Notes: generated from the letters alone by a model not told the origin. 64,000 nucleotides of DNA from an uncultured cyanobacterium (GCA_963744145.1 CAVUSO010000001.1:3776001-3840000); one strand, 5' to 3'. Shown: positions 2,063 through 64,000, counted from the stretch's first letter. Numbers and translations are program-made.

Positions 2063-5000
2063 TCACTCTGGAATAGCTTCATCAATTAACTGCATTAATT
2101 TTATCGTCTCTTTGAGTGCAACAACTATACGCTGATAATGTTGGATATCTTCAGGGGTAAGAGTGCGTCCTTTACGATCCTTCAGCCATTTTTGACAAAC
2201 TTGATAACCCCCGACATAAAAGTTCCATACTTCTTCAGGTACTCCAGTAAATTTGTCTCCTTTTTTGTTAATTTTGACGCTGTTTTGCTCATATTTTGGA
2301 TGTCCTGGGTCAACTACGCGATCGCCCCCAGTTTCGATAAAATTGGTAATCAGTGTGTCAAGTTTAGGAGATTTCATTAAGTGTAGAGCAACTAGTTCTT
2401 CACCATAGGTGGAAAGCTGACAAAATAGTTTATTGTTGCTGGTAAGAGGAACACGAGGAAAGTCTATTTTTAGAAATTCGGCATAGCGAGTACGATAGGT
2501 TGGAGAATGAAAAACAGCATAGATATAGTAAAAAATTGCTTCTGCTGTGGGTAAATAGCCTAGCTTGTTAGTTATTGCTATGAGAAATTCTTCAGAGAAG
2601 TTAGAGCGGCGTTGTTCTTGTAATTCTTGAGGTTTATCTATATCGGGATAAATATAAAGAGGAATTGTAAAACCACGTTCACGAGTTTTATTTGAAACAT
2701 AACAATCATCTGCAACGTAATTTGTCACTAACGTATGTTGCCATGAATCGCTAATAACTTGTCTACAAATATGAAAACCAATATTAGTTTCTATTTCCAT
2801 ATGACGCATCACTTCTTTTCTTGGATATTCTGCAATATCTTCATGATGATAATATGATCTAGAATCAAATGGACGATAAGAAGATTTAATAAGATAATCT
2901 ATCCATTCAGTACGAGAACTTAGTTCTTTTCTCTTTTGACTTAATTTCCAATCGCGGGTATCTTCCAATCCATATTTTTCTCGTATAACTTCATCCGAGA
3001 TATTTGTATCTCTAAATTCCTCAATTCTTTTAAAAAGAGAAGTATAGTCAAAATCGTAGGCAAAATGATCACGATGAGTTTTAATTCCTGTTGCATTGAC
3101 TGGCATTAAATTAGTTATTTTCCATCCTTTTGAATACTCTGGTAAAAGCTCATTGTTTTGAGGAATAAAAAGAGAAAAAGGTTTTTGTGGTAAAAGGTTT
3201 GTCCAGTCTGTAGATGTAGGTAAAACATTATGGTTTAGTAGCCACTCATATTTAGAGCCTCTTGTACCGTATAAATGCGCGTGGTTGATTTCAGATGCTA
3301 TTGGATTTTCATCCTTTACCATAATACAAACCGCTACACCCTGCTGAATATCAAATACATTCTCATCCTTTGCTCTATCTAATGCTGTTTCTTTTTTCTT
3401 AGAATTTCCATGTAAATCAAGTACATGAATGCAGTTAAAACTTTTGGCTAAACTCTGTCGCATTCCCCGAAATGTAGGATTATCTAGATAACCGTGATTG
3501 GTTACAAAAGAAAGGATTCCTTTACCTGTTTTATCAATACGCCACTGTGAAAAGCGAATAAACTTAACATAGTCATCTAATAAAAGCTTAGGATTCTGCT
3601 CTTTTATCTCATCTTTAGGATAATAGCTATTTCGCACTAAATTTGTAGCCCATTCACTATTGTTTGCTGAATTTACCGAATAAGGAGGATTACCAATTAC
3701 TACCATTACAGGTATATCTAACTTTACACTTACTGCTGCGTCAGATTCCTCAGCAATAAATTCCTTAAATAATGTTTCCGATCGCCGTTTGGCATCATCT
3801 AGTGTATTAGTTAAATAAACGCCCAACCTTTGACCACTATCAAACAGATATCCTGTCTCTTCCAAAAATAATCCTAATTTAAGATGAGCGATCGCATAGG
3901 GAGCCATCAACAACTCAAACCCAAAAATCCTCGGTAATAACCTCTCCTTCACATATCCAGACCAAGACTTATCCTCTAAACCTTCAGTCAGAGCATCTGA
4001 TGACTCTTGAAAACGTTGATAAATTAATTGACAAATCCATAATAAAAACGTCCCTGTCCCACAAGCAGGATCAAGAATCATCACCTCTGGATCTGCTAAA
4101 CCCAAAGGTTTATTAAACTTCTCCTTGACTAAAATATCTACAGAACGAACCATATAAGAAACAACTGGTTCCGGTGTATAATAAACCCCCCGACGTTCTC
4201 GCATCTGTGGTTTATATGCTGCTAGAAAATCTTCATAGAACCGAATCACAATATCTTCCCGGTTCATTTTCATCTCAAAATCTGACAAAATTGCATCCAT
4301 CTTAGCAACACGGAGAATTCTAAAAATCTCCGCGATCGCACCAATCAAATCATCCCCCAATTCCTCAGCTTTACGTTCCGAGACATCCTTAAACAACTTC
4401 CGCAAAAAAGGGTTAGTTTCTGGTAACTGTTCCCAAGCTTTTTCTCGATTAAAATGAGTAGGTTTACTAATCCGTCCTTCTCGTTTATCCTTGACATAAC
4501 TAAATACCCTAGCTGTAAATAAAGCATAGGCAATAGTTTGGGCATAAATATCAGCAAAACTGTAATCTTTCTCATTATCTGCACTTAACTTTAAAGCAGG
4601 TAATAATTCCCTTTGAAAACTCTTAAGTAAATGGTGCAAATATCCATCTTCTTGCTCTTGTTTATAGACAACAGGAATAACTTGCTCAATATTACGAGCT
4701 GCTTTTGCTAACAATTGTGCTAATTCCTGAGCAGTTTTAATTGGTTCGTAAAATACCCACTCGACCAAAGGAACAGAAGTTAACCCCATCGTCGCGATCG
4801 GTAACTCATCTTGTCTAAGACGGTTTAAACGTGCTACCAATTGGGCATCATTTCTAGCAAAAGTTTGAATTTGCTTTGCTCGTAATCCTCCCTCACTAGG
4901 AAGAATTAAAGGTACTGTTCCAGTCACTGCTTGATTTGGTAACAGCAAATATATTACTGGTTGATCTTCTAAGATCCGATTTGTCCAATGTCCATATATT

Positions 5001-5263
5001 TCCTGTTGCTGTTCTTTTGCGCTCAAAAAACTTTTAGCTTCTGTGGGTGTTAAATCAGCAAGTTCATCATAAAAACCCACTGCAATTGGACAAGTTTCTC
5101 TAGCTTCATCTGCATTAGATCCTGGACGCAAATACCAAAACCTTGACCCGACCGGATCACGTTCTTTCACTGCATATCCCAACAGTTGTCGTAATGCTTC
5201 AATATAGCTATTTTCATCCTGATTTTGCATTACAGTTTGCAACTGTTCCTGAGTGAAAGCCAT
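2063..5263 (-). CDS. N6-adenine DNA methyltransferase fused to a Type ISP/IIG-like C-terminal specificity domain
   Basis: GVYYTP, ILDPACGTGTF (SAM binding), GNPPY (catalytic), DDYVKFIR, DFPRVP and GGYQVCQKWLKDRK motifs. Confidence 0.9.
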   Translation of the reverse strand: MAFTQEQLQTVMQNQDENSYIEALRQLLGYAVKERDPVGSRFWYLRPGSNADEARETCPIAVGFYDELADLTPTEAKSFLSAKEQQQEIYGHWTNRILEDQPVIYLLLPNQAVTGTVPLILPSEGGLRAKQIQTFARNDAQLVARLNRLRQDELPIATMGLTSVPLVEWVFYEPIKTAQELAQLLAKAARNIEQVIPVVYKQEQEDGYLHHLLKSFQRELLPALKLSADNEKDYSFADIYAQTIAYALFTARVFSYVKDKREGRISKPTHFNREKAWEQLPETNPFLRKLFKDVSERKAEELGDDLIGAIAEIFRILRVAKMDAILSDFEMKMNREDIVIRFYEDFLAAYKPQMRERRGVYYTPEPVVSYMVRSVDILVKEKFNKPLGLADPEVMILDPACGTGTFLLWICQLIYQRFQESSDALTEGLEDKSWSGYVKERLLPRIFGFELLMAPYAIAHLKLGLFLEETGYLFDSGQRLGVYLTNTLDDAKRRSETLFKEFIAEESDAAVSVKLDIPVMVVIGNPPYSVNSANNSEWATNLVRNSYYPKDEIKEQNPKLLLDDYVKFIRFSQWRIDKTGKGILSFVTNHGYLDNPTFRGMRQSLAKSFNCIHVLDLHGNSKKKETALDRAKDENVFDIQQGVAVCIMVKDENPIASEINHAHLYGTRGSKYEWLLNHNVLPTSTDWTNLLPQKPFSLFIPQNNELLPEYSKGWKITNLMPVNATGIKTHRDHFAYDFDYTSLFKRIEEFRDTNISDEVIREKYGLEDTRDWKLSQKRKELSSRTEWIDYLIKSSYRPFDSRSYYHHEDIAEYPRKEVMRHMEIETNIGFHICRQVISDSWQHTLVTNYVADDCYVSNKTRERGFTIPLYIYPDIDKPQELQEQRRSNFSEEFLIAITNKLGYLPTAEAIFYYIYAVFHSPTYRTRYAEFLKIDFPRVPLTSNNKLFCQLSTYGEELVALHLMKSPKLDTLITNFIETGGDRVVDPGHPKYEQNSVKINKKGDKFTGVPEEVWNFYVGGYQVCQKWLKDRKGRTLTPEDIQHYQRIVVALKETIKLMQLIDEAIPE

Positions 5264-13640: not shown

Positions 13641-13755
13641 TTCTATATAGGTATCACCAGAGCAAGCCAGTAAAGCGATTACCTACGGTATACTGCGTGA
13701 ACGCAATTAGAATGAGAATTATCTGAGCTAGTCAGTAAATGGGATAGTGAGAAAG

Positions 13756-14310
13756 ATGACCACAGTAGCAACGAAACCAACAAGAAAGAAGTTTACTGTA
13801 GAGGAATATTACAAGCTGGGTGAAGTCGGGATAATTGGACCGGATGAGCGAACCGAGCTAATTGATGGGGATATTATGCTTATGGCACCAATGGGTCGTC
13901 GTCATAGAGGGTACATAATTCGGCTGCATAGAATATTTTCTAAACTTTTAAACGACCGTGCTTTAGTCATAGACCAAATCCCGGTCAGATTAAAGGTCGG
14001 ATTACAACCGGAACCCGATCTATCAATTTTGAAACCTTGTGGTGATGATTACATAAAATCAGATATTCAAATCCAAGACATTTATTTACTAATTGAAATA
14101 TCGGATACCACTATTGACTATGACCGCAATGTGAAGTCAGTCCTCTATGCGAGAGCTGGGATTATTGAACTTTGGATCGTAGATATCGAAGGGGCGTATT
14201 GCAATACGCCCGTACTAGAGGTTTATCGCAATCCTGGTCCGAACGGTTATGAAAGTATCCAGCAATTTAGACGCGGTGAAAGTATCTCACCTCTTTCATT
14301 TCCAGACTAG
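13756..14310 (+). CDS. Uma2 (DUF820) family protein, C-terminal tail frameshifted
   Basis: ELIDG, PEPDL, LIEISD and YARAGI motifs; stop after FPD, while the expected tail VISVDAIF follows in another frame. Confidence 0.85.
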   Translation: MTTVATKPTRKKFTVEEYYKLGEVGIIGPDERTELIDGDIMLMAPMGRRHRGYIIRLHRIFSKLLNDRALVIDQIPVRLKVGLQPEPDLSILKPCGDDYIKSDIQIQDIYLLIEISDTTIDYDRNVKSVLYARAGIIELWIVDIEGAYCNTPVLEVYRNPGPNGYESIQQFRRGESISPLSFPD

Positions 14311-33480: not shown

Positions 33481-34074
33481 ATGGTACAAACTATTTCGAT
33501 CGAATTACCGATCGCGATCGGTCTTTCTGTTACTCCGGAACAATTTCAGACCCTCGCGATCGCAAATCGAGATTTAAGATTAGAACTGACAGCAACAGGA
33601 GAATTAATTGTGAATCCACCAACTGGAGGAGAAACGGGTGCAAAAAATTGCAGTATTACTGGACAACTAGATCGCTGGTACGAAAAAAACGAAAACTTAG
33701 GAGAAGCGTTTGACTCATCTACTGGGTTTAGACTGCCGAATGAAGCGATTCGTTCCCCAGATGCTGCTTGGGTTAGTCGGGAACGTTACCAAACACTTAC
33801 TCCTCAACAGCGAAAAAGCTTTTTACCCTTATGTCCAGATTTTGTAATTGAGCTACGTTCTGATTCAGATAGTCTGGTGACATTACAAACCAAGATGAAA
33901 GAATATATTGATAATGGCACAAAATTAGGTTGGTTAATTGACCCCCAGAATCGACGAGTAGAGATTTATCGATCGAACTCAGATGTGGAAGTCTTGGAAA
34001 ATCCGACTGAACTATCTGGTGAGGATATATTACCTGGTTTTGTGTTGAATTTAAAGCGAATATTTTATAAGTAA
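33481..34074 (+). CDS. Uma2 (DUF820) family protein
   Basis: FDSSTGF, RSPDAAW, PDFVIELRS, LGWLIDP. Confidence 0.92.
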   Translation: MVQTISIELPIAIGLSVTPEQFQTLAIANRDLRLELTATGELIVNPPTGGETGAKNCSITGQLDRWYEKNENLGEAFDSSTGFRLPNEAIRSPDAAWVSRERYQTLTPQQRKSFLPLCPDFVIELRSDSDSLVTLQTKMKEYIDNGTKLGWLIDPQNRRVEIYRSNSDVEVLENPTELSGEDILPGFVLNLKRIFYK

Positions 34075-34152
34075 GTTGGTCTCAATTATCCGTGATGGTT
34101 GCACAGCTTCGAGATGGGAACTAAATAATCAGACGCAGCTAGTACATCAGAC

Positions 34153-36964
34153 ATGGTTAAAGTAAAAAATTCAGACTCAATACTTAATTCTATTAAGCGA
34201 TCGCCTAAATTTAGTTTAATTCCACTCAGACTAATCCTCATAGCCCCATTTATTATTCAAATCTTTGCTGCTGTTGGATTAACAGGATGGTTAGCTTTAC
34301 GCAATGGGCAAAAAGCTGTTAATGATGTAGCTCAACAGTTGCGCTCAGAATTATCCCAGCGGATTGAGGAAAAACTAAAAACCTATACAGAAATTACCCA
34401 CGCTATCAACCATTTTAATACTGCCAATTTTGCCAGAGGTGTAATTGATGTTAGTGGTGTCAAAGGTGAAGCGCAAATGTGGGACCAAATGCAGATTTAT
34501 CCTGACCTCAGCGATGTTCACTGTGGGGATGAAAATGGTGGATATATTGGTATTGTTAGGGTTTCAGCCCAAGATCGTTCTAAGGTGAATTTAGTATTTA
34601 GCAATCCATCGACCAATTTTATCCTTCAATACTTTGCCTTAGATTCTCAAGGTAATCGTACTCAAAAGGTGGAATACACTATTAATAAGCCCTACGATCC
34701 CCGAGTTCGACCTTGGTACAAAGCAGCCAAGACAGCAGGGAAAAGCGTTTGGAGTGAAATTTATCTTGATTTTTCTACCTTATATCCGACACTAAATGGT
34801 AATGTGCCTGTCTATAGCCCAACGGATAAATCTTTTATGGGCGTTTGTGCGACAGCCTTCTATTTACCCCAGGAAATGTCAAAGTTTCTGCAAGGTTTAA
34901 AGATTGGGAAAACAGGTACAGTGTTTATGATGGAACGCTCTGGACGACTGGTGGCAACTTCTACTAAAGAACCTATGCTCGATGGTCAGGGAGAGAATGT
35001 TACCCGTTTAGCAGCAGTCGATAGTACCAATCTCACCATTAAAGCTACAGCGCAGCTTTTGAGCGATCGCTTCCAAGACCTCAACCAGATTCAATCCGTA
35101 CAACAAATTGACTTTAAAGGCGTCAGGTAAGAAGGATTATATCCAAGTAGTGCCATTTAAGGACTTGAACCTAGACTGGCTGATTGTGATTACTATTCCC
35201 GAATCAGATTTTATGGAGCAAATCGATGCCAACACCAATACAACAATTATATTATGTTTAGGAGCCTTAGCAGTAGCAATTGTGTTAGGAATTTACACCT
35301 CTCGTTGGATTTCTCAACCCATTGCCCGGTTGAACAAAGCATCTCAAGAAATTACTAGAGGAAACCTAGACCAAGAAATCCAACCAGAAAATATTAAAGA
35401 ACTGGATCAGCTTGGTCAGACATTTAATACAATGAGCCATCAACTTCAGTCTTTTTTCCACGCTCTAGCCCAAACTAATCGAGAACTCGAACAACGAGTA
35501 GAAGAACGCACCGCCGACCTAAAACAATCCAAAGAAGAAGCAGAACTAGCCAAACAAGCAGCATATAGTGCTAATCAAGCTAAAAGTGAATTTCTGGCTA
35601 ATATGAGTCATGAACTTCGCACTCCCTTAAATGGTATTTTAGGTTATGCCCAAATTCTCGGGCGGATGAAAGAACTTCCTGAAAAAGCTCGTCATGGAGC
35701 TAATGTTATCCATCAATGTGGTTCTCATTTATTAACCCTAATCAATGATGTTCTAGATATCTCTAAAATTGAGGCTCGTAAACTCGAACTAGTGCCTAGT
35801 GCTGTTCATTTACCATCACTGATACAAGGTGTTGTCGAAATCTCTCAAATCCGCGCTCAACAAAAAGGTATTGAGTTACATTACGAACCTGATCCTAACT
35901 TACCTAATGGTATTGTTATTGATAAAAAACGGTTGAGACAAGTATTGATTAATCTTTTAAGTAATGCGATTAAATTTACTGATCAAGGTCGGGTTACTTT
36001 GAAAGTTGAGCCGCGAAATATTAATCAAGATGTGATTAATCAAAACCAGATCCTTCTGTATTTTTCTGTCACTGATACTGGGATTGGTATCGCCCAGGAA
36101 AATCTCCAAAAATTATTTCAAGTTTTTCAACAAGTAGGCGATCGCAGTCGTCACGCAGAAGGAACAGGTTTAGGATTAGCAATTAGTCAACAAATTCTCC
36201 AATTAATGGGGAGTAAAATTCAAGTTGAAAGTCAACTGGGAGTGGGCAGTAAATTCTTTTTTGAACTAGATTTATCCTTGCATCAGGAATGGGTAGAGCA
36301 ACAAACCATTGAAGCGGGTAATATTAGCAGCTATAATGGCAGGAAACAACAAATTTTAGTTATAGATGATCGTTGGGAAAATCGGGCTGTAATTGTAAAT
36401 TTATTAGAACCTATTGGTTTTGTAGTTAGGGAAGCAGAAAATGGACAGATTGGTTTAGACAAAATGCGGGAAAATCTACCAGATTTAATCATTACAGACC
36501 TAGTAATGCCCGTAATGGATGGTTTTGAAATGCTCAAACAATTGCGAAATGATCAGAAATTAAAAGATTTAAAAGTTCTGGTTTCATCGGCATCTGTAGC
36601 ACAACTAGACCAACAAATGAGCTTAGACGCGGGTGGGGATGACTTTCTCGCTAAACCAGTGAACGCTCCAGACTTATTTAATCTCTTAGCCCATCATTTA
36701 CAACTGACTTGGAATTATGAAGAAGTAGAAGTAGTAGTAAGCGAGCAAGAAATAATATTTCCCCCAGCCTCTGAACTAGAGCAAATCTATCAAGCTGGTA
36801 GAATTGGTGATATGGATACGGTGATAAATGAAGCTAATCGGTTAGAACAGTTAAACCCTGAGTATAAACCTTTTGTTGATCGTTTAAGGGAATTTACTGA
36901 CAATTTTGATGACACTGGTATTAGGAAATTTATTGAACCGATTATGCGATCGGATCACCTCTAA
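34153..36964 (+). pseudogene. Cache-HAMP-HisKA-HATPase-REC hybrid histidine kinase split by one frameshift near 35120
   Basis: 34153-35130 encodes TM+Cache (YDPRVRPWY); overlapping 35108-36964 continues ([38 protein letters not shown], receiver domain). Confidence 0.85.
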
Positions 36965-37237
36965 TCGCCGAATATGTGGACAAAAGTGGACTATACGGCA
37001 TAATTGTATCCATCGACCCGGTGAACTATTTGGCAGTATTTAGCTCTCACAGGGCTAATCTTGCCCTTGGCAGTCACCATTTCAAACACACCTGTGGCAC
37101 GAACAGTTAAGCGCCCAATATGAGTTCCTGCGAATTTTCCTTTTGGCAGAGTAGCGCGGACTATATCCCCAGTTTGAAACCCGAAAAAAGCTTTCTGTCT
37201 AGTTCGATGTCTGATCGGAAAACCATATTGGTTGGTA

Positions 37238-38817
37238 AGTAGTCGGACATAAATAAAGTTAACTATGTTAACTTTATTTAAGAGTAAATTTGACCCACAA
37301 ATTTACCAGAGAAAAGCATATAAAAGTATTCCCTCCGTCCAACTGAATAGGTTTCACTAGAGAGTAAGAAAACTGCATTTCCAGATTTTCTATTAACTAT
37401 AAATATGGTCAGTTTTGCCTCAGCCTCTCATTAAACAATTAATGGAATTTTTCCGGTTGACTAGAACTAGAATAAACCCGATTAGGATTTTTGTTCATCC
37501 TGGCTAGGCTGACCACCAAATCTAAATCTTTTTACTTCTAAGCCCTTACTAGTTTGACGAGCTTCGATTGCTGCTCTTACCGCGATGGTTAATTCATATT
37601 CATTCTCAAACATTTGACCAGCTAATTCATCTTCTTTGATTCTTTCCCACTCCGTTTCAATCAGATTTAATTCGGGAGAGTAACTGGATAATAGGAATAT
37701 ATATAATCCTTGTTTTTCCCATTGATCATAGTTGCTCTTCGTCAATTTACTTACGTGAACGGAATATTGGTCTTGGACAATTACAGTTATTTTGCCCGTT
37801 TCTTTCAATCTAGTTTCCGCTTGCGCGGCTTGCCAATCCATTAATTTGATATAATTCTTACTGTCAAAACTCTTAAAACTTAATCCATATTCAAAGCTTT
37901 CTCCCACGGCCAAAAATCCACATATATTTAATCTTTTCCCTTTCTTTTTAGGCTGTTTGATCTGTTTCTGTTGGCCGATTTTCCCCCAGGTATATACAGG
38001 TTCAGCCCACAGGCTAAATCCTGATTCATCCAAATATTTTAAACATATTTCACCCGCGGCTGCCGCGAATTCCAACATCTCTAAATCATTTCTTTTAGTT
38101 GCTCTTTTTTCCTGGTCTTGCTTTCCTTTTAGAGATGTTCTCGTTCTTTTCCACCGATAGTTTTTTTTGAGGATTCGACGCAACTGTCTTTGGCTCAGTT
38201 TTACTTGCCTTTCCTGGGCTAGATATTTCACTAACTGACGACTATTATAAGCTCGTTCCTCTGTCTCTAGTTTTTTTTCAATTTCTGCCAAATCTGCCTG
38301 ACTCCATTTTCTTTTCCTGCCCGGACGAGGCGCATCCCATAATCCTGCTAATCCCTGTTTTTCCCAACGATGTATTGTGGCTCTCACTGTCTTAATTGAC
38401 CAGTTCAGATACTTGCCGATCTGTTCCACTTTCCATCCCATTGATGATAATCTCAAGTTCGCAGCCCGATCTCTTGTTCTTAGTGGAACTCCCTCGGCTC
38501 TATTTAATTCCCATAAGGTTTGATTTTCCGCAGATGTTAAAAATATTCTCAAAGGAGGAGATGACATTTTCTTCAAACTTTTAAGTTAGCTCTATAATTA
38601 TTTCACAATCAGGGTGTTTTTTTTGAAGCTAAAATCGACCTCACTTATCCCCTTAATTACCAAAATAAGTCTAATTTTTTGCTCCCATTGTCCAGCCACT
38701 TCTTTGGCCAATCTTCTCCAGATTGGACTAATTTTTCGATGACTTTGTCCAGCTTATTGCTTGACCCATACGTTTTACAAAAGTTAATACAGTACCTATT
38801 ACTTTTGTCCGACTACT
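37238..38817 (-). mobile_element. IS630-family insertion sequence, 1580 bp
   Basis: TIR AGTAGTCGGACA at both ends; TA duplicated at 37236-37237 and 38818-38819. Confidence 0.93.
37482..38576 (-). CDS. IS630-family transposase
   Basis: HTH, PRPGR, YLDESGF, VQDQYSVH, SYSPELNLIE. Confidence 0.93.
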   Translation of the reverse strand: MKKMSSPPLRIFLTSAENQTLWELNRAEGVPLRTRDRAANLRLSSMGWKVEQIGKYLNWSIKTVRATIHRWEKQGLAGLWDAPRPGRKRKWSQADLAEIEKKLETEERAYNSRQLVKYLAQERQVKLSQRQLRRILKKNYRWKRTRTSLKGKQDQEKRATKRNDLEMLEFAAAAGEICLKYLDESGFSLWAEPVYTWGKIGQQKQIKQPKKKGKRLNICGFLAVGESFEYGLSFKSFDSKNYIKLMDWQAAQAETRLKETGKITVIVQDQYSVHVSKLTKSNYDQWEKQGLYIFLLSSYSPELNLIETEWERIKEDELAGQMFENEYELTIAVRAAIEARQTSKGLEVKRFRFGGQPSQDEQKS

Positions 38818-39859
38818 TAGTAGACATTTGGCGAGTACCCCATCCCTTAGCCGTAATCAGTAATGGCTTAGTAGTTTTTAAGGCTAATTTCTCAACTACT
38901 CCTACACAAGCTGCATCAAGATAGTGACGTTTTTCAATGCCTAATTTGACGCGATTGAATTTAGTTCTACCACCAGTCCACACCTCAACAGCTAGACCTG
39001 TTTCTCGTAACCGATGATATAATTCCCATCGGGTTGAATTGACAGCCGCAGCGTCTTTTAATGGTGCCTTAGCTTGCGTTAAAACTCGCTTTAAAATTTC
39101 TGGTTGATTTTTCAAAAATTTCTCAATCTGCTCATTACCTTTTTTCTGATTACAAGCATGACAAGCTAGGGTAAGATTGCTGACTCTGTCTGTTCCACCT
39201 TTACTTTTAGCTAAAATGTGTTCAATCTCTAGGGGCGTTTTTTTAGCACCACAATAAACACATTTTCTGCCCCATTTTGCCAGTAAGTATTCGCGAACTT
39301 CGTACCCTTGTAGTTCCCCTTGTTGATACTCAGTACCGCTAATTTCAGGATTAACTAGGGCTTGAGGATCAAACCTTACTAACTCTTGAGAAATGCCTGT
39401 AATTGGGGCAAATTTCCTGAGTCTGTTTACCCAAGTTAGAGTGGTTTGGACTCGGTGTTCAAGACTGGGTGCTAACCAACCTTTAGGACGGGTTCTATTT
39501 AGAAATCTTGCTTGGCGATAACGAGTTTTACGGTTCCGTCGAGTCCGACGCAACGCTCGACCGAGACTCAAGATTAGCTTTAATTGCTTGACCACGATGG
39601 GTTAATTCTGCACCCCAAATAACCGCATCATTAGATACTAATGCCAGACCAGTTGTTTGAGAACCTGGATCTATTTTTAACTGAACTGGTTTAGTTATTT
39701 CAGTTGACACAGTTTTTAAGATGATTGTAAATGGAAATCTCCGCCAAACTGCGGCTTTCCCCCGATTCAACAACAATCGAGCTTGTGCTGGATGAACAGG
39801 ATTAATTGGGCGCTTGTTGGTATCGATCACAAAAACCAAGTTAGACATAGTTGAAACTC

Positions 39860-40093
39860 TGATTGCTCAGGTAATTTTTTCCTCGTCAATGTTACTTAGG
39901 CTTGTCATGTTCAGTTCACTTTCTTGAGCTAAATAGGAATGTTTAAAACTGAACGGCAGAGCTAAAAGCTGGAAAGCACTCGCAGGTGCCATGACCCAAG
40001 TAACGTAGTCCCTCGCTTTGCTTAGAACTGAGACTGGCCATCTCTACACTTTATGTACTGGTTGTCCAGATATGTCCAGTGTTTAGCGGATAG
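39860..40093 (-). ncRNA. omegaRNA scaffold (HEARO-like); boundaries approximate
   Basis: Minus strand carries HEARO-like blocks in order (GGCCAGTCTCAG, CTACGTT, CACC..TGC..CCAGC..GCTCTG, TTAAACA, AACATTGACGAGG) directly upstream of iscB. Confidence 0.85.
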
Positions 40094-40176
40094 CTATAAT
40101 TTAATCTTCAACATGGTAGTGAAATGATGTATATTAAAGGTAAGAGAGAAATGAAAATTTGTCTACTATCTGGGAG

Positions 40177-41752
40177 CAATACTCCGGACAAAATTAAACT
40201 GCAATCGCACCGTAGGAAAGTAGTTCTGAGTAATTGGGATGGCTTTTGATCAAAGTCGGCTCCAAATCTAACTTCAAAATAAATTGTTCCAAAAGATGCG
40301 CGTTGAAGGCTTGGCGTTTATAAGTAGCCATAGAAAAGATAAAGGGCTCATCTTCTTGATGGTTTAATCTGGCTGATAATTTGGCAATATTCAAAGCTGT
40401 CAGACTAGCATTAAAATGAAAATCTAATTTGGCCGCATCACGGGCTTGACAATCCACTAATCCTGTAAACTGTTTAGCATCACGAAAAATAAATTCAATC
40501 TGAAAACGAGCCTGATAATACTCGTAAATTTCCAGGGCGGTCAGCGACAAATCTGTTGAAAACAAAATTAGATAACCAGTTTTGTCAGGCTGACGCTGAT
40601 CAACAACCACGACAATTTTAATGTTTCTCTCTAAGGAGACATGATTAACTATCGCACTATAAATATTAACTGATTTCTCAACTTCCTGGCCCCAAGTCAA
40701 ACGACTTAAATTAGTGAAATTGACTTTTCCTGCATAGAGACGTGGGCGACCACGCTCTTTTTGTTCACCCTGATATAAATAACGCATATTGGCATCAATC
40801 CGCAATTTACCTAGGTAATGAAAATTGACAGATATCACCCCATCAACAAACTTTTTTTTACTATAGTACCCATCAGCTACTAGGTGGCGTATATCCGATG
40901 GAATATAGCTTTGAGCTCTTTTTAGTTGCTCTAAATACTGATCTACTCTTGTAGCTTCATCCTCTTGATTGTCCGATGTTTTCGGACTAGATTTTCGGGA
41001 TTTTTTCTGATTTTTTCCTGGCGATTTTTTGGTGGTTTTTCTTGGTGATTCTGTGGGCAAAGATGGTGATGTTTGCTGAACAGATAAAGCATAAGCCGTG
41101 TTGATATCTAAATCAATAAGTGCGAGCAGAGAAATTTCTAACCCCCGTTCTGCTTGGCTCTTACTACTATTATAGAAATAATCTTTTCCATAGGTTTTTT
41201 TACCACTTTTTTGAATAAATGAACAGTCCATTGCTAAAATTTTTCGACTCGTGACCGCTAGGGCTAATTGCAGGAGTTGTTTATTTAACTCCAAAAAATT
41301 GAAGGAGCGCTGAAAATGGCGTCGATAAGTTTTTTCGTTTAACTGCGAGTAACGACTTAAATTAGTAAAATTGACTTTACCATAGACTAACAAGATAGTT
41401 GTCATTAAGGTTAAGAAAAATTTTTTTTGAGCTTTACTAATCCCAGCAAGTTGAGTTAAGATGTTTTCTAGAAAATTCATAATTATCGGTCGGGTGGAAT
41501 TTACTATGTAAATTCTCTCACGATCGATATTTTTTTGGTGATCTCAGTAAGGAAAAAATTGCGCCCAATCCGTTCGGTTGCCTGATTTGGCCAGAAAATT
41601 GTTCAAGTAGAAAACGATTCAGAATCGAAAATATCTGCCAAATCAGGTTTTCGGCTAGTCCCAGTCTGTCTTTTGGCTATTGGACCGAAAACTATTGGTT
41701 AGTCAATTATACCTATAAATAATTTTCTCTCACCAAAGTGTCCGGAGTATTG
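40177..41752 (-). mobile_element. IS4/IS701-like insertion sequence, 1576 bp
   Basis: Perfect 14-bp TIR CAATACTCCGGACA; 6-bp target duplication TGGGAG (40171-40176, 41753-41758). Confidence 0.93.
40194..41480 (-). CDS. DDE transposase
   Basis: AMDCS, VADGYY and YQARFQIEFIFRDAKQ (Y-2-R-3-E-6-K signature). Confidence 0.92.
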   Translation of the reverse strand: MNFLENILTQLAGISKAQKKFFLTLMTTILLVYGKVNFTNLSRYSQLNEKTYRRHFQRSFNFLELNKQLLQLALAVTSRKILAMDCSFIQKSGKKTYGKDYFYNSSKSQAERGLEISLLALIDLDINTAYALSVQQTSPSLPTESPRKTTKKSPGKNQKKSRKSSPKTSDNQEDEATRVDQYLEQLKRAQSYIPSDIRHLVADGYYSKKKFVDGVISVNFHYLGKLRIDANMRYLYQGEQKERGRPRLYAGKVNFTNLSRLTWGQEVEKSVNIYSAIVNHVSLERNIKIVVVVDQRQPDKTGYLILFSTDLSLTALEIYEYYQARFQIEFIFRDAKQFTGLVDCQARDAAKLDFHFNASLTALNIAKLSARLNHQEDEPFIFSMATYKRQAFNAHLLEQFILKLDLEPTLIKSHPNYSELLSYGAIAV

Positions 41753-41798
41753 TGGGAGAATGATAGCTAAGAATAGCTAATCAGTAATATTAACTATT

Positions 41799-46636: not shown

Positions 46637-47338
46637 TTAGTCAGGTAAATTGCCAAAATGCTGCTGATAACGAGCTAATAACATTTCCAACTGTTCAAGT
46701 CGAAGATGTTCTTGTTCAGCTCTTTGCTCTGCTTGAATTCTGGCTAAATTTTCCTGTTCTAGAGCATCTAACAACTCATCGGGAGTTAACAATTTTTTGC
46801 CATTATCTTCGCGATAAAAACTAATCAAATCACCTTCCACAGCTAAACTCAATTGTAAAGGATCACTCCGACCATCAAAAATTTCCTCAAACACCTCTCC
46901 TCGTAAACGATAACCCCGCAACCTTTCGGGAATCCACTCTCCTTTGGGATCAAACAACCAATATTCTCTTACCCCCAACTGTTCATACAGAATTCTCTTA
47001 AAGCTTTTATCATAGTCTTCAGTTTCTTTACCAGTGATTTCAAAAATCACTACCGGAATCTGACCTTCTTCCCAAATTTTATAACCATCCCTTAACCTGG
47101 GTTGCACATCAAAAATCACCATCACATCAGGAGCAGTTCGCAATTTCGGAAAACCTTGAGCATAATAAAGAAACTGATTAGCCAAAACACTTGCTTGATG
47201 ACCTTTAAGATATTGTCGCAGGACTTGTAAAGTATTGAGCAGCACATAAAAATTATCAACTGCTTCCATCCCAGGTTCATAATTTCGACCCTGAGCCAAA
47301 GGTTGAGCGGGTTCTTCTATGTATGAGTCAAAAGTCAT
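46637..47338 (-). CDS. Uma2 (DUF820) family protein with coiled-coil tail
   Basis: APDVMV, FEIT, LGVREYWLFDP; ATG at 47338 preferred. Confidence 0.88.
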   Translation of the reverse strand: MTFDSYIEEPAQPLAQGRNYEPGMEAVDNFYVLLNTLQVLRQYLKGHQASVLANQFLYYAQGFPKLRTAPDVMVIFDVQPRLRDGYKIWEEGQIPVVIFEITGKETEDYDKSFKRILYEQLGVREYWLFDPKGEWIPERLRGYRLRGEVFEEIFDGRSDPLQLSLAVEGDLISFYREDNGKKLLTPDELLDALEQENLARIQAEQRAEQEHLRLEQLEMLLARYQQHFGNLPD

Positions 47339-47479
47339 AAGGATATTTTGAGGTTGATTGTCTATTTTAGGATACTTGCAAGCTGATCTCAATTTATCTC
47401 GGCAATTTTCCCTGGTTCAACTTGGATATCTGAATCCGGAAACTGAGATAATGATTGTCCGAACTAGAGAAAAACTACT

Positions 47480-61491: not shown

Positions 61492-61558
61492 AATAGTGGT
61501 AGATTAGACCCTCAATAGGTTTTATTTTTTGATGCTTTTTTCTTCAGGAGATTTTTCG

Positions 61559-62173
61559 ATGATCCAAGCATTAACCAAACCGATCACATTTGACAATTTT
61601 CTCGACTGGTATCCAGATCACTCAGAATACCGATACGAATTACACCGAGGAGTTATTGTTCAAATGCCTAATGCAACTGGTTTTCATTCACAGGTAGGGG
61701 GTTTTTTAATAGCTGAATCAATTTTAGAAATCAGACGAACAAAACTACCTTATTTTGTTCCTAGAGACTGTATTGTTAAAACTGCGGATGATACAGGCTA
61801 TGAACCTGATGTGATTGTACTTGATACCAGAGCGATCAATAATGAACCTCGCTGGTCAAAAGGTTCTACGATCGAAATGGGTTCATCTGTAATTATAATT
61901 GTGGAAATAGTTAGCACTAATTGGCGAGATGACTATTTAACGAAAGCTGCTAGTTATGAAGCAATGGGTATTCCTGAATACTGGATTGTTGACTATCTTG
62001 GTTTAGGTGGTAGAAGGTTCATTGGTAATCCCAAACAACCAACTATTTCAGTTTATCAATTGGTTGATGGTGAGTATCAAATTAATCAATTTCGTGGTAA
62101 TGAGCGGATTGAGTCGATCGCCTTCCCAGAACTAAATTTAACAGCAGAACAGATTTTTCAAGCCGGATTGTGA
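61559..62173 (+). CDS. Uma2 (DUF820) family protein
   Basis: YEPDV, VEIVSTNW, GIPEYWIVD. Confidence 0.9.
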   Translation: MIQALTKPITFDNFLDWYPDHSEYRYELHRGVIVQMPNATGFHSQVGGFLIAESILEIRRTKLPYFVPRDCIVKTADDTGYEPDVIVLDTRAINNEPRWSKGSTIEMGSSVIIIVEIVSTNWRDDYLTKAASYEAMGIPEYWIVDYLGLGGRRFIGNPKQPTISVYQLVDGEYQINQFRGNERIESIAFPELNLTAEQIFQAGL

Positions 62174-63793: not shown

Positions 63794-64000
63794 TTAGCGC
63801 GATTGCAAAATTGGTTCAAGCAAGAGAGTAATAGCATGATCATCAAATTGGTTAGCCAGCTCCATAATATGAGCAATAAACGGTTGATATTCTTGATTCA
63901 ACTGTTCTAAGCGACTAGCTTCACTTTTAACCTTAGCTATATCACCAATCCGACTGGATTGGTAGATTTGAGTGAGTTCTGCGGCTGGGGGAAAGATCAT
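63794..64000 (-). CDS. 3' end of a hybrid histidine kinase (partial)
   Basis: IFPPAAEL.QIYQ..RIGD...LEQLN.EY.PF is similar to the C-terminal tail of the 35108-36964 product. Confidence 0.8.
   Translation of the reverse strand: MIFPPAAELTQIYQSSRIGDIAKVKSEASRLEQLNQEYQPFIAHIMELANQFDDHAITLLLEPILQSR

Follow-up and report, generated by a model that had tools for sequence, protein, structure and literature searches.

The window analysed here, a 64-kb stretch (64,000 nt) of an uncultured cyanobacterium (GCA_963744145.1 CAVUSO010000001.1:3776001-3840000), contains a gene for a hybrid sensor histidine kinase/response regulator whose 3' end runs into a mobile element made up of an iscB gene and its omegaRNA (Table 1). 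An earlier note, made from the sequence alone, had proposed that this insertion left the kinase C-terminus unchanged and that the reconstructed empty site predicts GTGA(T) as the transposon-adjacent motif (TAM). From related copies and their host genes, the data are best explained by a left end (the 3' side of iscB) that lies 6-8 nt further out than that note placed it. Throughout, the plus strand is treated as the top strand; in these terms the left end falls at about 36953-36961, and about 40093 marks the right end.

The kinase gene and its IscB element

By Pfam, the kinase has dCache_1, HAMP, HisKA, HATPase_c and Response_reg domains. Its 618-aa open reading frame (ORF; 35108..36964, plus strand) ends ...IMRSDHL*, with GAT CAC CTC TAA at 36953-36964, and its stop codon (36962-36964) lies inside the element whichever boundary model is used, so that the element-supplied stop described earlier holds. 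The gene is also split (window 34114-35130): a 930-aa paralogue aligns in frame 1 up to 35115 and in frame 2 from 35108, which indicates a probable frameshift or sequencing error near 35108-35115, where the dCache sensor gives way to the HAMP/kinase part. Identity to this paralogue is only 33% in the sensor part and 76% in the remainder.

Relatives of the element were sought among 80 cyanobacterial iscB loci, out of 451 confirmed, from a scan of genome contigs. The window's own genome is not among these loci; the best match is 87% identical, and only three loci have the element's ends: L001 (Aerosakkonema sp.) and L002 (a metagenome-assembled genome), both with an intact iscB, and the more distant L059. 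Within the window itself no further copies were found, the end motifs matching only themselves and HEARO giving a single match.

Judged by its sequence features, the element is a decayed, non-autonomous combination of iscB and a HEARO omegaRNA on the minus strand, and an ordinary member of the IscB/HEARO elements. The omegaRNA, which the earlier note had correctly recognised on this strand, is the only Rfam match in the window (HEARO, RF02033, at 40094..39871); it covers the full model with a score of 110.2 bits against a gathering score of 83, and lies directly upstream of iscB (start at 39848) on the same strand. Its first helix pairs GCUAUC with GAUGGC in the centroid fold, unlike the other cyanobacterial HEARO subfamilies fetched, which have GUCA(G/A)CA in the 5' helix and score higher (134-165 bits); the scores for L001 and L002 are 121 and 124 bits. 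A domain order of RRXRR/RuvC, HNH and a C-terminal TAM-interacting region, with a 5' guide, is shared by OgeuIscB and other characterised IscB proteins, and the arrangement is the same here. Pfam places RRXRR domains on 39848..39528 and on 39595..38813, the latter also with HNH (PF14239, E 4.5e-31 and 1.2e-36 on the two pieces; PF01844, E 1.4e-12).

Alignment of the intact 424-aa L001 IscB by tblastn locates two breaks in the window gene. Residues 1-99 match at 39848-39552 (frames -3 and -1 across the first break), residues 112-347 at 39514-38792, where true homology stops at residue 343, and residues 344-423 at 37236-36997, a colinear C-terminal region. At the first break, a single extra base near 39560 shifts the frame; in alignment with the window, L001 and L002 each have a gap of one column there. 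The second is an IS630-family insertion sequence (IS) of 1.58 kb (37238-38817) with DDE_3 (PF13358, E 6.1e-17) and HTH domains, 51-nt inverted arms (37236-37286 and 38769-38819) and a TA on either side; across one TA the iscB frame is restored, reading ...MSTTNQYGFP against ...MSTTNKYGFP in L001. Because of the surplus base and the IS630-type insertion, the window iscB is a pseudogene and this copy is dead.

Table 1. Coordinates of the features at the kinase-IscB locus, counted from the first letter of the window
Feature	Position	Strand	Remarks
Hybrid sensor histidine kinase/response regulator	34153..36964	+	Two ORFs, 34153..35130 and 35108..36964
Host GCGATCG, 7 bases of the HIP1 octamer in Met-Arg-Ser codons	36946..36952		Predicted TAM CGATCG... 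on the minus strand
Whole IscB/omegaRNA element, including nested IS	36953..40093	-	Both ends may sit 1 nt to the right (36954-40094); end homology with L001 and L002
Left-end tail after iscB stop	36953..36990	-	Outer 8 nt (36953-36960) host in the earlier note; alignment and joins
IscB C-terminal piece	36991..37236	-	Residues 344-424 of L001 IscB; stop codon 36991-36993; 94% identity to L001 IscB (tblastn)
Nested IS630-family insertion	37236..38819	-	IS 37238-38817; TA at 37236-37 and 38818-19; transposase ORF 37482..38576
IscB middle piece (bridge/RuvC-II, HNH, RuvC-III region)	38820..39559	-	Pfam RRXRR C-terminal half and HNH; 84% identity
IscB N-terminal piece	39552..39848	-	Residues 1-99; Pfam RRXRR 1-95; 85% identity
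OmegaRNA scaffold (HEARO)	39871..40094	-	cmscan 110.2 bits, E 5.9e-23, model 1-211
Guide-supplying flank	40094..40112	-	3' end 40094, or 40095 if G40094 belongs to the scaffold
Separate IS, DDE_5/DDE_Tnp_1 transposase ORF 40194..41480	40171..41758	-	Inverted repeats and duplication

Related copies, host genes and the left boundary

On the omegaRNA side, similarity among the window copy, L001, L002 and L059 begins at the minus-strand G equivalent to 40094, and the base preceding it is A, T, C and T, respectively. The two bases beyond this end read CT in the window, CA in L001 and CG in L002, so that C alone recurs. On the left side, the window, L001 and L002 remain alike for about 8 nt past 36960|36961, that is, past the minus-strand GATTAG. 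These 8 nt read AGGTGATC in the window, AGGCGATC in L001, AGGCTATG in L002 and ATGACACC in L059; they are followed, in the same order, by CGATCGCA, TGATCGCA, CGATCGCA and CGATCTTA, and the sequences are unrelated beyond. YGATC thus stands at the same left-end offset in all four copies (CGATC in L059).

Host genes offer an independent measure of where the element ends. For the kinase, we compared 10 paralogues, 9 from the same 7.63-Mb contig and 1 at window 64000..63797. They carry ...EPI[ML][RQ]S at the position of the kinase tail, and their stop follows one residue later in 7 cases (RSP three times, RSL, RSQ, RSC and QSR) and three residues later in none; in tblastn, the alignments of 7 of the 9 same-genome paralogues terminate at 36952. 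Since the paralogues keep [ML][RQ]S there, ATG CGA TCG (36944-52) belongs to the host, and their tails rule out that the element carried the Met-Arg-Ser codons. Most likely, TCG (Ser, ending at 36952) is the final host codon of the kinase, and the element supplies the three codons that follow and the stop (36953-36964).

In L002, the host gene reading into the omegaRNA encodes XisI (PF08869) and now ends ...TGYAIR*, with its stop inside the element. Joining its right flank to the left flank 8 nt past GATTAG gives ...TGYAIA*; of the 120 XisI homologues compared, 114 have their stop three residues past G[YF], and the final residues are GYAIA in 35. The join implied by the earlier boundary gives ...TGYGYAIA*, and GYGYA is found in none of the 120. 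The ORF that emerges from the left end of L001 is a member of a family called 'photosystem II assembly protein' by its sources and, past the element, lacks its own start codon. Joins here give ...SSNVIANWW, or ...SSNLIANWW with a 1-nt shift at both ends, and match the spacing of MSNAIANWW (P0241, 94% identical) and MATSNLIANWW (P0243); the earlier boundary yields SSNGDLIANWW, two residues too many. Because of these two reconstructions, the net inserted length must be 6 nt above what had been allowed for.

By homology, the window element would span 36953-40093 or 36954-40094. Joining TCG (36950-52) to CTA TAA (40094-99) then gives ...MRSL*, and the shifted register ...MRSV*. The best explanation is that the native kinase tail was probably ...MRSL* (or ...MRSV*) and became ...MRSDHL*, so that the insertion would have changed the tail by adding two residues rather than left it intact. 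The repeated Leu-stop is best read as a coincidence between the element's CTC TAA (36959-64) and the flank's CTA TAA (40094-99). Unshifted joins restore a perfect octamer of the cyanobacterial repeat HIP1 (GCGATCGC) in the window and in L002, and a 7-of-8 variant in L001.

Taken together, the three independent host-gene reconstructions indicate that the left end of an IS200/IS605 element has a conserved block in which both the element end and the TAM lie, which is why a boundary drawn from end similarity alone can be several bases off. With the boundary of the earlier note, follow-up work would start from an incorrect TAM and an incorrect empty-site sequence; the corrected reading alters the search string and primers for the empty allele, the TAM to assay and the effect on the host protein (two residues added, not none).

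Left ends in the wider collection have features of their own. In many other cyanobacterial subfamilies (L003-L063) the left end closes with GAGG/GGAG, 3-9 nt, and then (A/C)CGTGA or TTTATGA, a pattern that resembles an outward-facing ribosome-binding site and start codon at the very edge; with such an edge, a gene interrupted at its start could be translated again. In the window, a reading frame starting at an ATG in the last iscB codons (36953-37015, minus strand) meets no stop on its way out across the left end, MD(T/I)(I/V)MP..., and the same outward-open frame is present in L001 (4926-4990) and L002 (3387-3460); the L001 frame continues in phase into the host ORF of the photosystem II assembly family, whose own start is lost. 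The best IscB in the plasmid collection (H2, Halotia; 71% identical) was set aside as a different subfamily, with ends GTCAGCACCCC / ...TTTTATGTG.

Proposed mechanism and competing explanations

The account we favour, and consider probable, is that a non-autonomous IS200/IS605-type iscB/omegaRNA element inserted in a HIP1 octamer overlapping the last codons of the kinase gene. Directly shown are what its parts are, where it is broken, how far the copies remain similar and how the host genes can be reconstructed; the exact cut sites in the window are placed by homology, and the TAM and all activity are inferred. In the description given by Meers et al. (bioRxiv 10.1101/2023.03.14.532601), as far as it concerns these elements, the omegaRNA lies at the right end with the guide encoded outside that boundary, the TAM adjoins the left end and is recognised by TnpA and nuclease alike, and the donor joint sets the TAM against the right-end flank. 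The rule that guides come from the 5' flank of the omegaRNA and that the TAM lies 3' of the target, on which the earlier note relied, is found in the same source.

Transferred to the present locus, a Y1 TnpA encoded elsewhere would be the mover and would excise the top strand, leaving a donor joint of TAM plus right-end flank. The omegaRNA, transcribed from beyond the right end, would carry that flank (minus strand, ending at 40094 or 40095) as its guide, and the previously proposed guide source is correct to within 1 nt. IscB would then cut the joint next to the 3' TAM, here CGATCG, and recombination would bring the element back. With a surplus base in iscB and the 1.58-kb IS630-family insertion, the window copy is now incapable of this homing cycle.

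As far as their published description goes, the IS200/IS605 IscB elements of Geobacillus stearothermophilus resemble this one in having a HEARO-like omegaRNA before iscB, a scaffold bounded by the right end, a guide encoded outside, a short conserved motif at the left end and no tnpA in cis. The co-oriented upstream gene in L001, L002 and L059 likewise fits the orientation bias that Meers et al. report. The window element differs from those of G. stearothermophilus in that its left-end motif is GC-rich and palindromic (YGATC in HIP1) where theirs is the AT-rich TTCAT, and in that it is broken twice and has no clear left-end hairpin.

A number of observations weigh against this account or against parts of it. 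Neither an empty allele nor a second copy in the same genome was found among the 80 cyanobacterial iscB loci, and no kinase orthologues from other strains were found, the best non-self matches being paralogues on the same contig. Y1 TnpA (PF01797) was found neither among the 51 window ORFs of at least 110 aa nor among the 13 ORFs of L001 and L002. The left end folds no better than its shuffles (z = 0.52) and shows no convincing hairpin; at the right end, a CTGG-TTGT-CCAG hairpin lies within the omegaRNA region (z = -1.44). The window boundary leans on two close copies and one distant one, all of separate genomes. The L002 element's final 8 nt, together with the XisI 3' flank, make up a perfect 22-nt palindrome with HIP1 at its centre (3433-3462); it differs from L001 at two positions, both making it perfect, and 7 of these final 8 nt match the last 7 nt of the other flank at 5 of 7 positions. 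Correction of a near-palindrome or an imperfect 7-bp duplication are possible origins, and the reading of the empty site is the same under both; no other XisI 3' ends by which to judge whether the palindrome is native were found in the 80 loci or the window.

On the 1-nt register the evidence is divided. HEARO RNAs of other subfamilies start with G after unrelated bases, and at the L001 join the shifted Leu occurs in 27 of 102 homologues and the unshifted Val in none, both of which favour G40094 as an element base. As a host base it is favoured by HIP1 statistics, G preceding CGATCGC in 53 of 69 cases, and by the paralogues with a one-residue stop, in 6 of 7 of which the last codon, judged by residue (P, Q, L, R), would start with C.

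The boundary originally proposed is, in our judgement, unlikely. It sets the element at 36959/61-40093/95 (net 3135 bp), with an empty site of GAT CAC before CTA TAA, a kinase tail of MRSDHL* and GTGA(T) as the TAM. Its deletion arithmetic is correct: removing 36959-40093, which equals 36961-40093 plus one CT, does give ...MRSDHL*, and CT does stand on both sides (36959-60 and 40094-95). An imperfect inverted similarity of the ends can moreover be drawn from CTAATCGCC / CTATCCGC, and GTGA looks typical of the family, since left ends in many other cyanobacterial IscB subfamilies close ...CGTGA or ...TTATGA. As support for the boundaries, however, the restored DHL* is not confirmed: the CT repeat is absent from the relatives and the extra CT was freely chosen, the kinase ORF reading ...DHLYNLIFNMVVK* when it is left in place. 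With CA in L001 and CG in L002 on the right side, a duplicated CT of 2 bp was likewise rejected, as was a crossover dinucleotide of a serine recombinase. With the ends of the earlier note, the host would have to have conserved another 12 nt, CGATC among them, at four of four independent sites, two residues would be added to the L002 XisI and, against a 94% ortholog, to the L001 host protein, and the kinase would stop three residues after [RQ]S, as none of its paralogues does. With the corrected ends, the GTGA itself (minus strand, 36958-36955) falls inside the element, with CGATCG adjoining the target in its place; at the spot of the GTGA, L001 reads GCGA and L002 GCTA.

It is about equally improbable that the mover was not an IS200/IS605 Y1 TnpA, a double-strand mechanism acting instead on imperfect inverted ends of about 30 bp with paired GTCCAS-N4-GTCCAS and perhaps duplicating a few target bases. 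The inverted similarity of the two ends speaks for such a mover (score 12, compared with 6.5 +/- 1.4 for shuffles, 15 of 2000 of which score as high), as do the non-significant left-end hairpin, the lack of tnpA in the window, L001 or L002, and the 5/7 direct repeat and palindrome of L002. Yet neither the window (1/7 matches) nor L001 (3/7) shows a target duplication, which rules out a general duplication of 7-8 bp for both, and a conserved motif at one end only is the signature of IS200/IS605. Absence of tnpA is also the norm: in the figures of Meers et al., it lies near only about 1.5% of iscB genes, and a serine recombinase near none. Frame-shifted boundaries, in which the right end includes C40094 with a left start at 36953 or 36959, or strict inverted-repeat ends of 36961-40093 are taken and no other base is removed, would have the HEARO model and other subfamilies beginning at the G and the same shuffle-beating end similarity in their favour, but are most improbable, as they leave the flank TAA (40097-99) out of frame, give a kinase ending ...YNLIFNMVVK* with 10-11 added residues seen in no paralogue, and conflict with the net inserted length fixed by L002 and L001.

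In the surroundings of the preferred IS200/IS605-type element, a separate, complete IS lies 82 bp upstream of the omegaRNA start and is co-oriented with it. Perfect 14-nt inverted repeats form its ends (40177-90 and 41739-52), with a 6-bp duplication of TGGGAG, and no other co-oriented gene is now left that could read through into the guide; a promoter scan upstream of the omegaRNA returned nothing on the minus strand. Farther away, the window has four Uma2-family genes (PF05685, putative restriction endonuclease) at 13747-14310, 33481-34074, 46637-47392 and 61529-62173, and a Type ISP restriction-modification gene at 2063-5263. At its far end (63797-64000, minus strand) lies the C-terminal end of another kinase paralogue of the same family, ...EPILQSR*, whose last codons hold a one-base HIP1 variant at the position matching the insertion site.

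The HIP1 core as a predicted TAM

The sole unusual point of this element is that its GC-rich, palindromic left-end motif coincides with the HIP1 core. At the empty site, C40094 would complete the octamer begun by the seven host bases, and the octamer occurs 53 times in the window. The TAM predicted from these positions is CGATCG-like, with YGATC as the consensus of the four copies. This prediction draws on four insertion sites from four genomes, a count that also tells against it, and is offered as a lead, not a result. Published TAMs of characterised IscB nucleases include NWRRNA and NAC, and the CGATCG-like motif predicted here from insertion sites differs from both. That this IscB subfamily uses the HIP1 core (CGATCG/GATC) as its TAM is a tentative proposal, one we hold to be possible but somewhat doubtful. 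A link of IscB, TnpB or IS605 with HIP1 was not found in the open-access literature searched.

As described by Elhai (2015, PMC4390886), HIP1-rich cyanobacteria generally carry GATC and CGATCG methyltransferases, and in most of them both of these methylation sites lie within the HIP1 core. If the proposed use of the HIP1 core is true, a HIP1-rich genome would offer about one landing and homing site per kilobase, and because of these enzymes the methylation state of a site could gate both TnpA insertion and IscB cleavage. The IscB repertoire would gain a GC-rich, palindromic TAM, and a selfish RNA-guided nuclease would be tied to the repeat that is most abundant, yet still unexplained, in cyanobacterial genomes.

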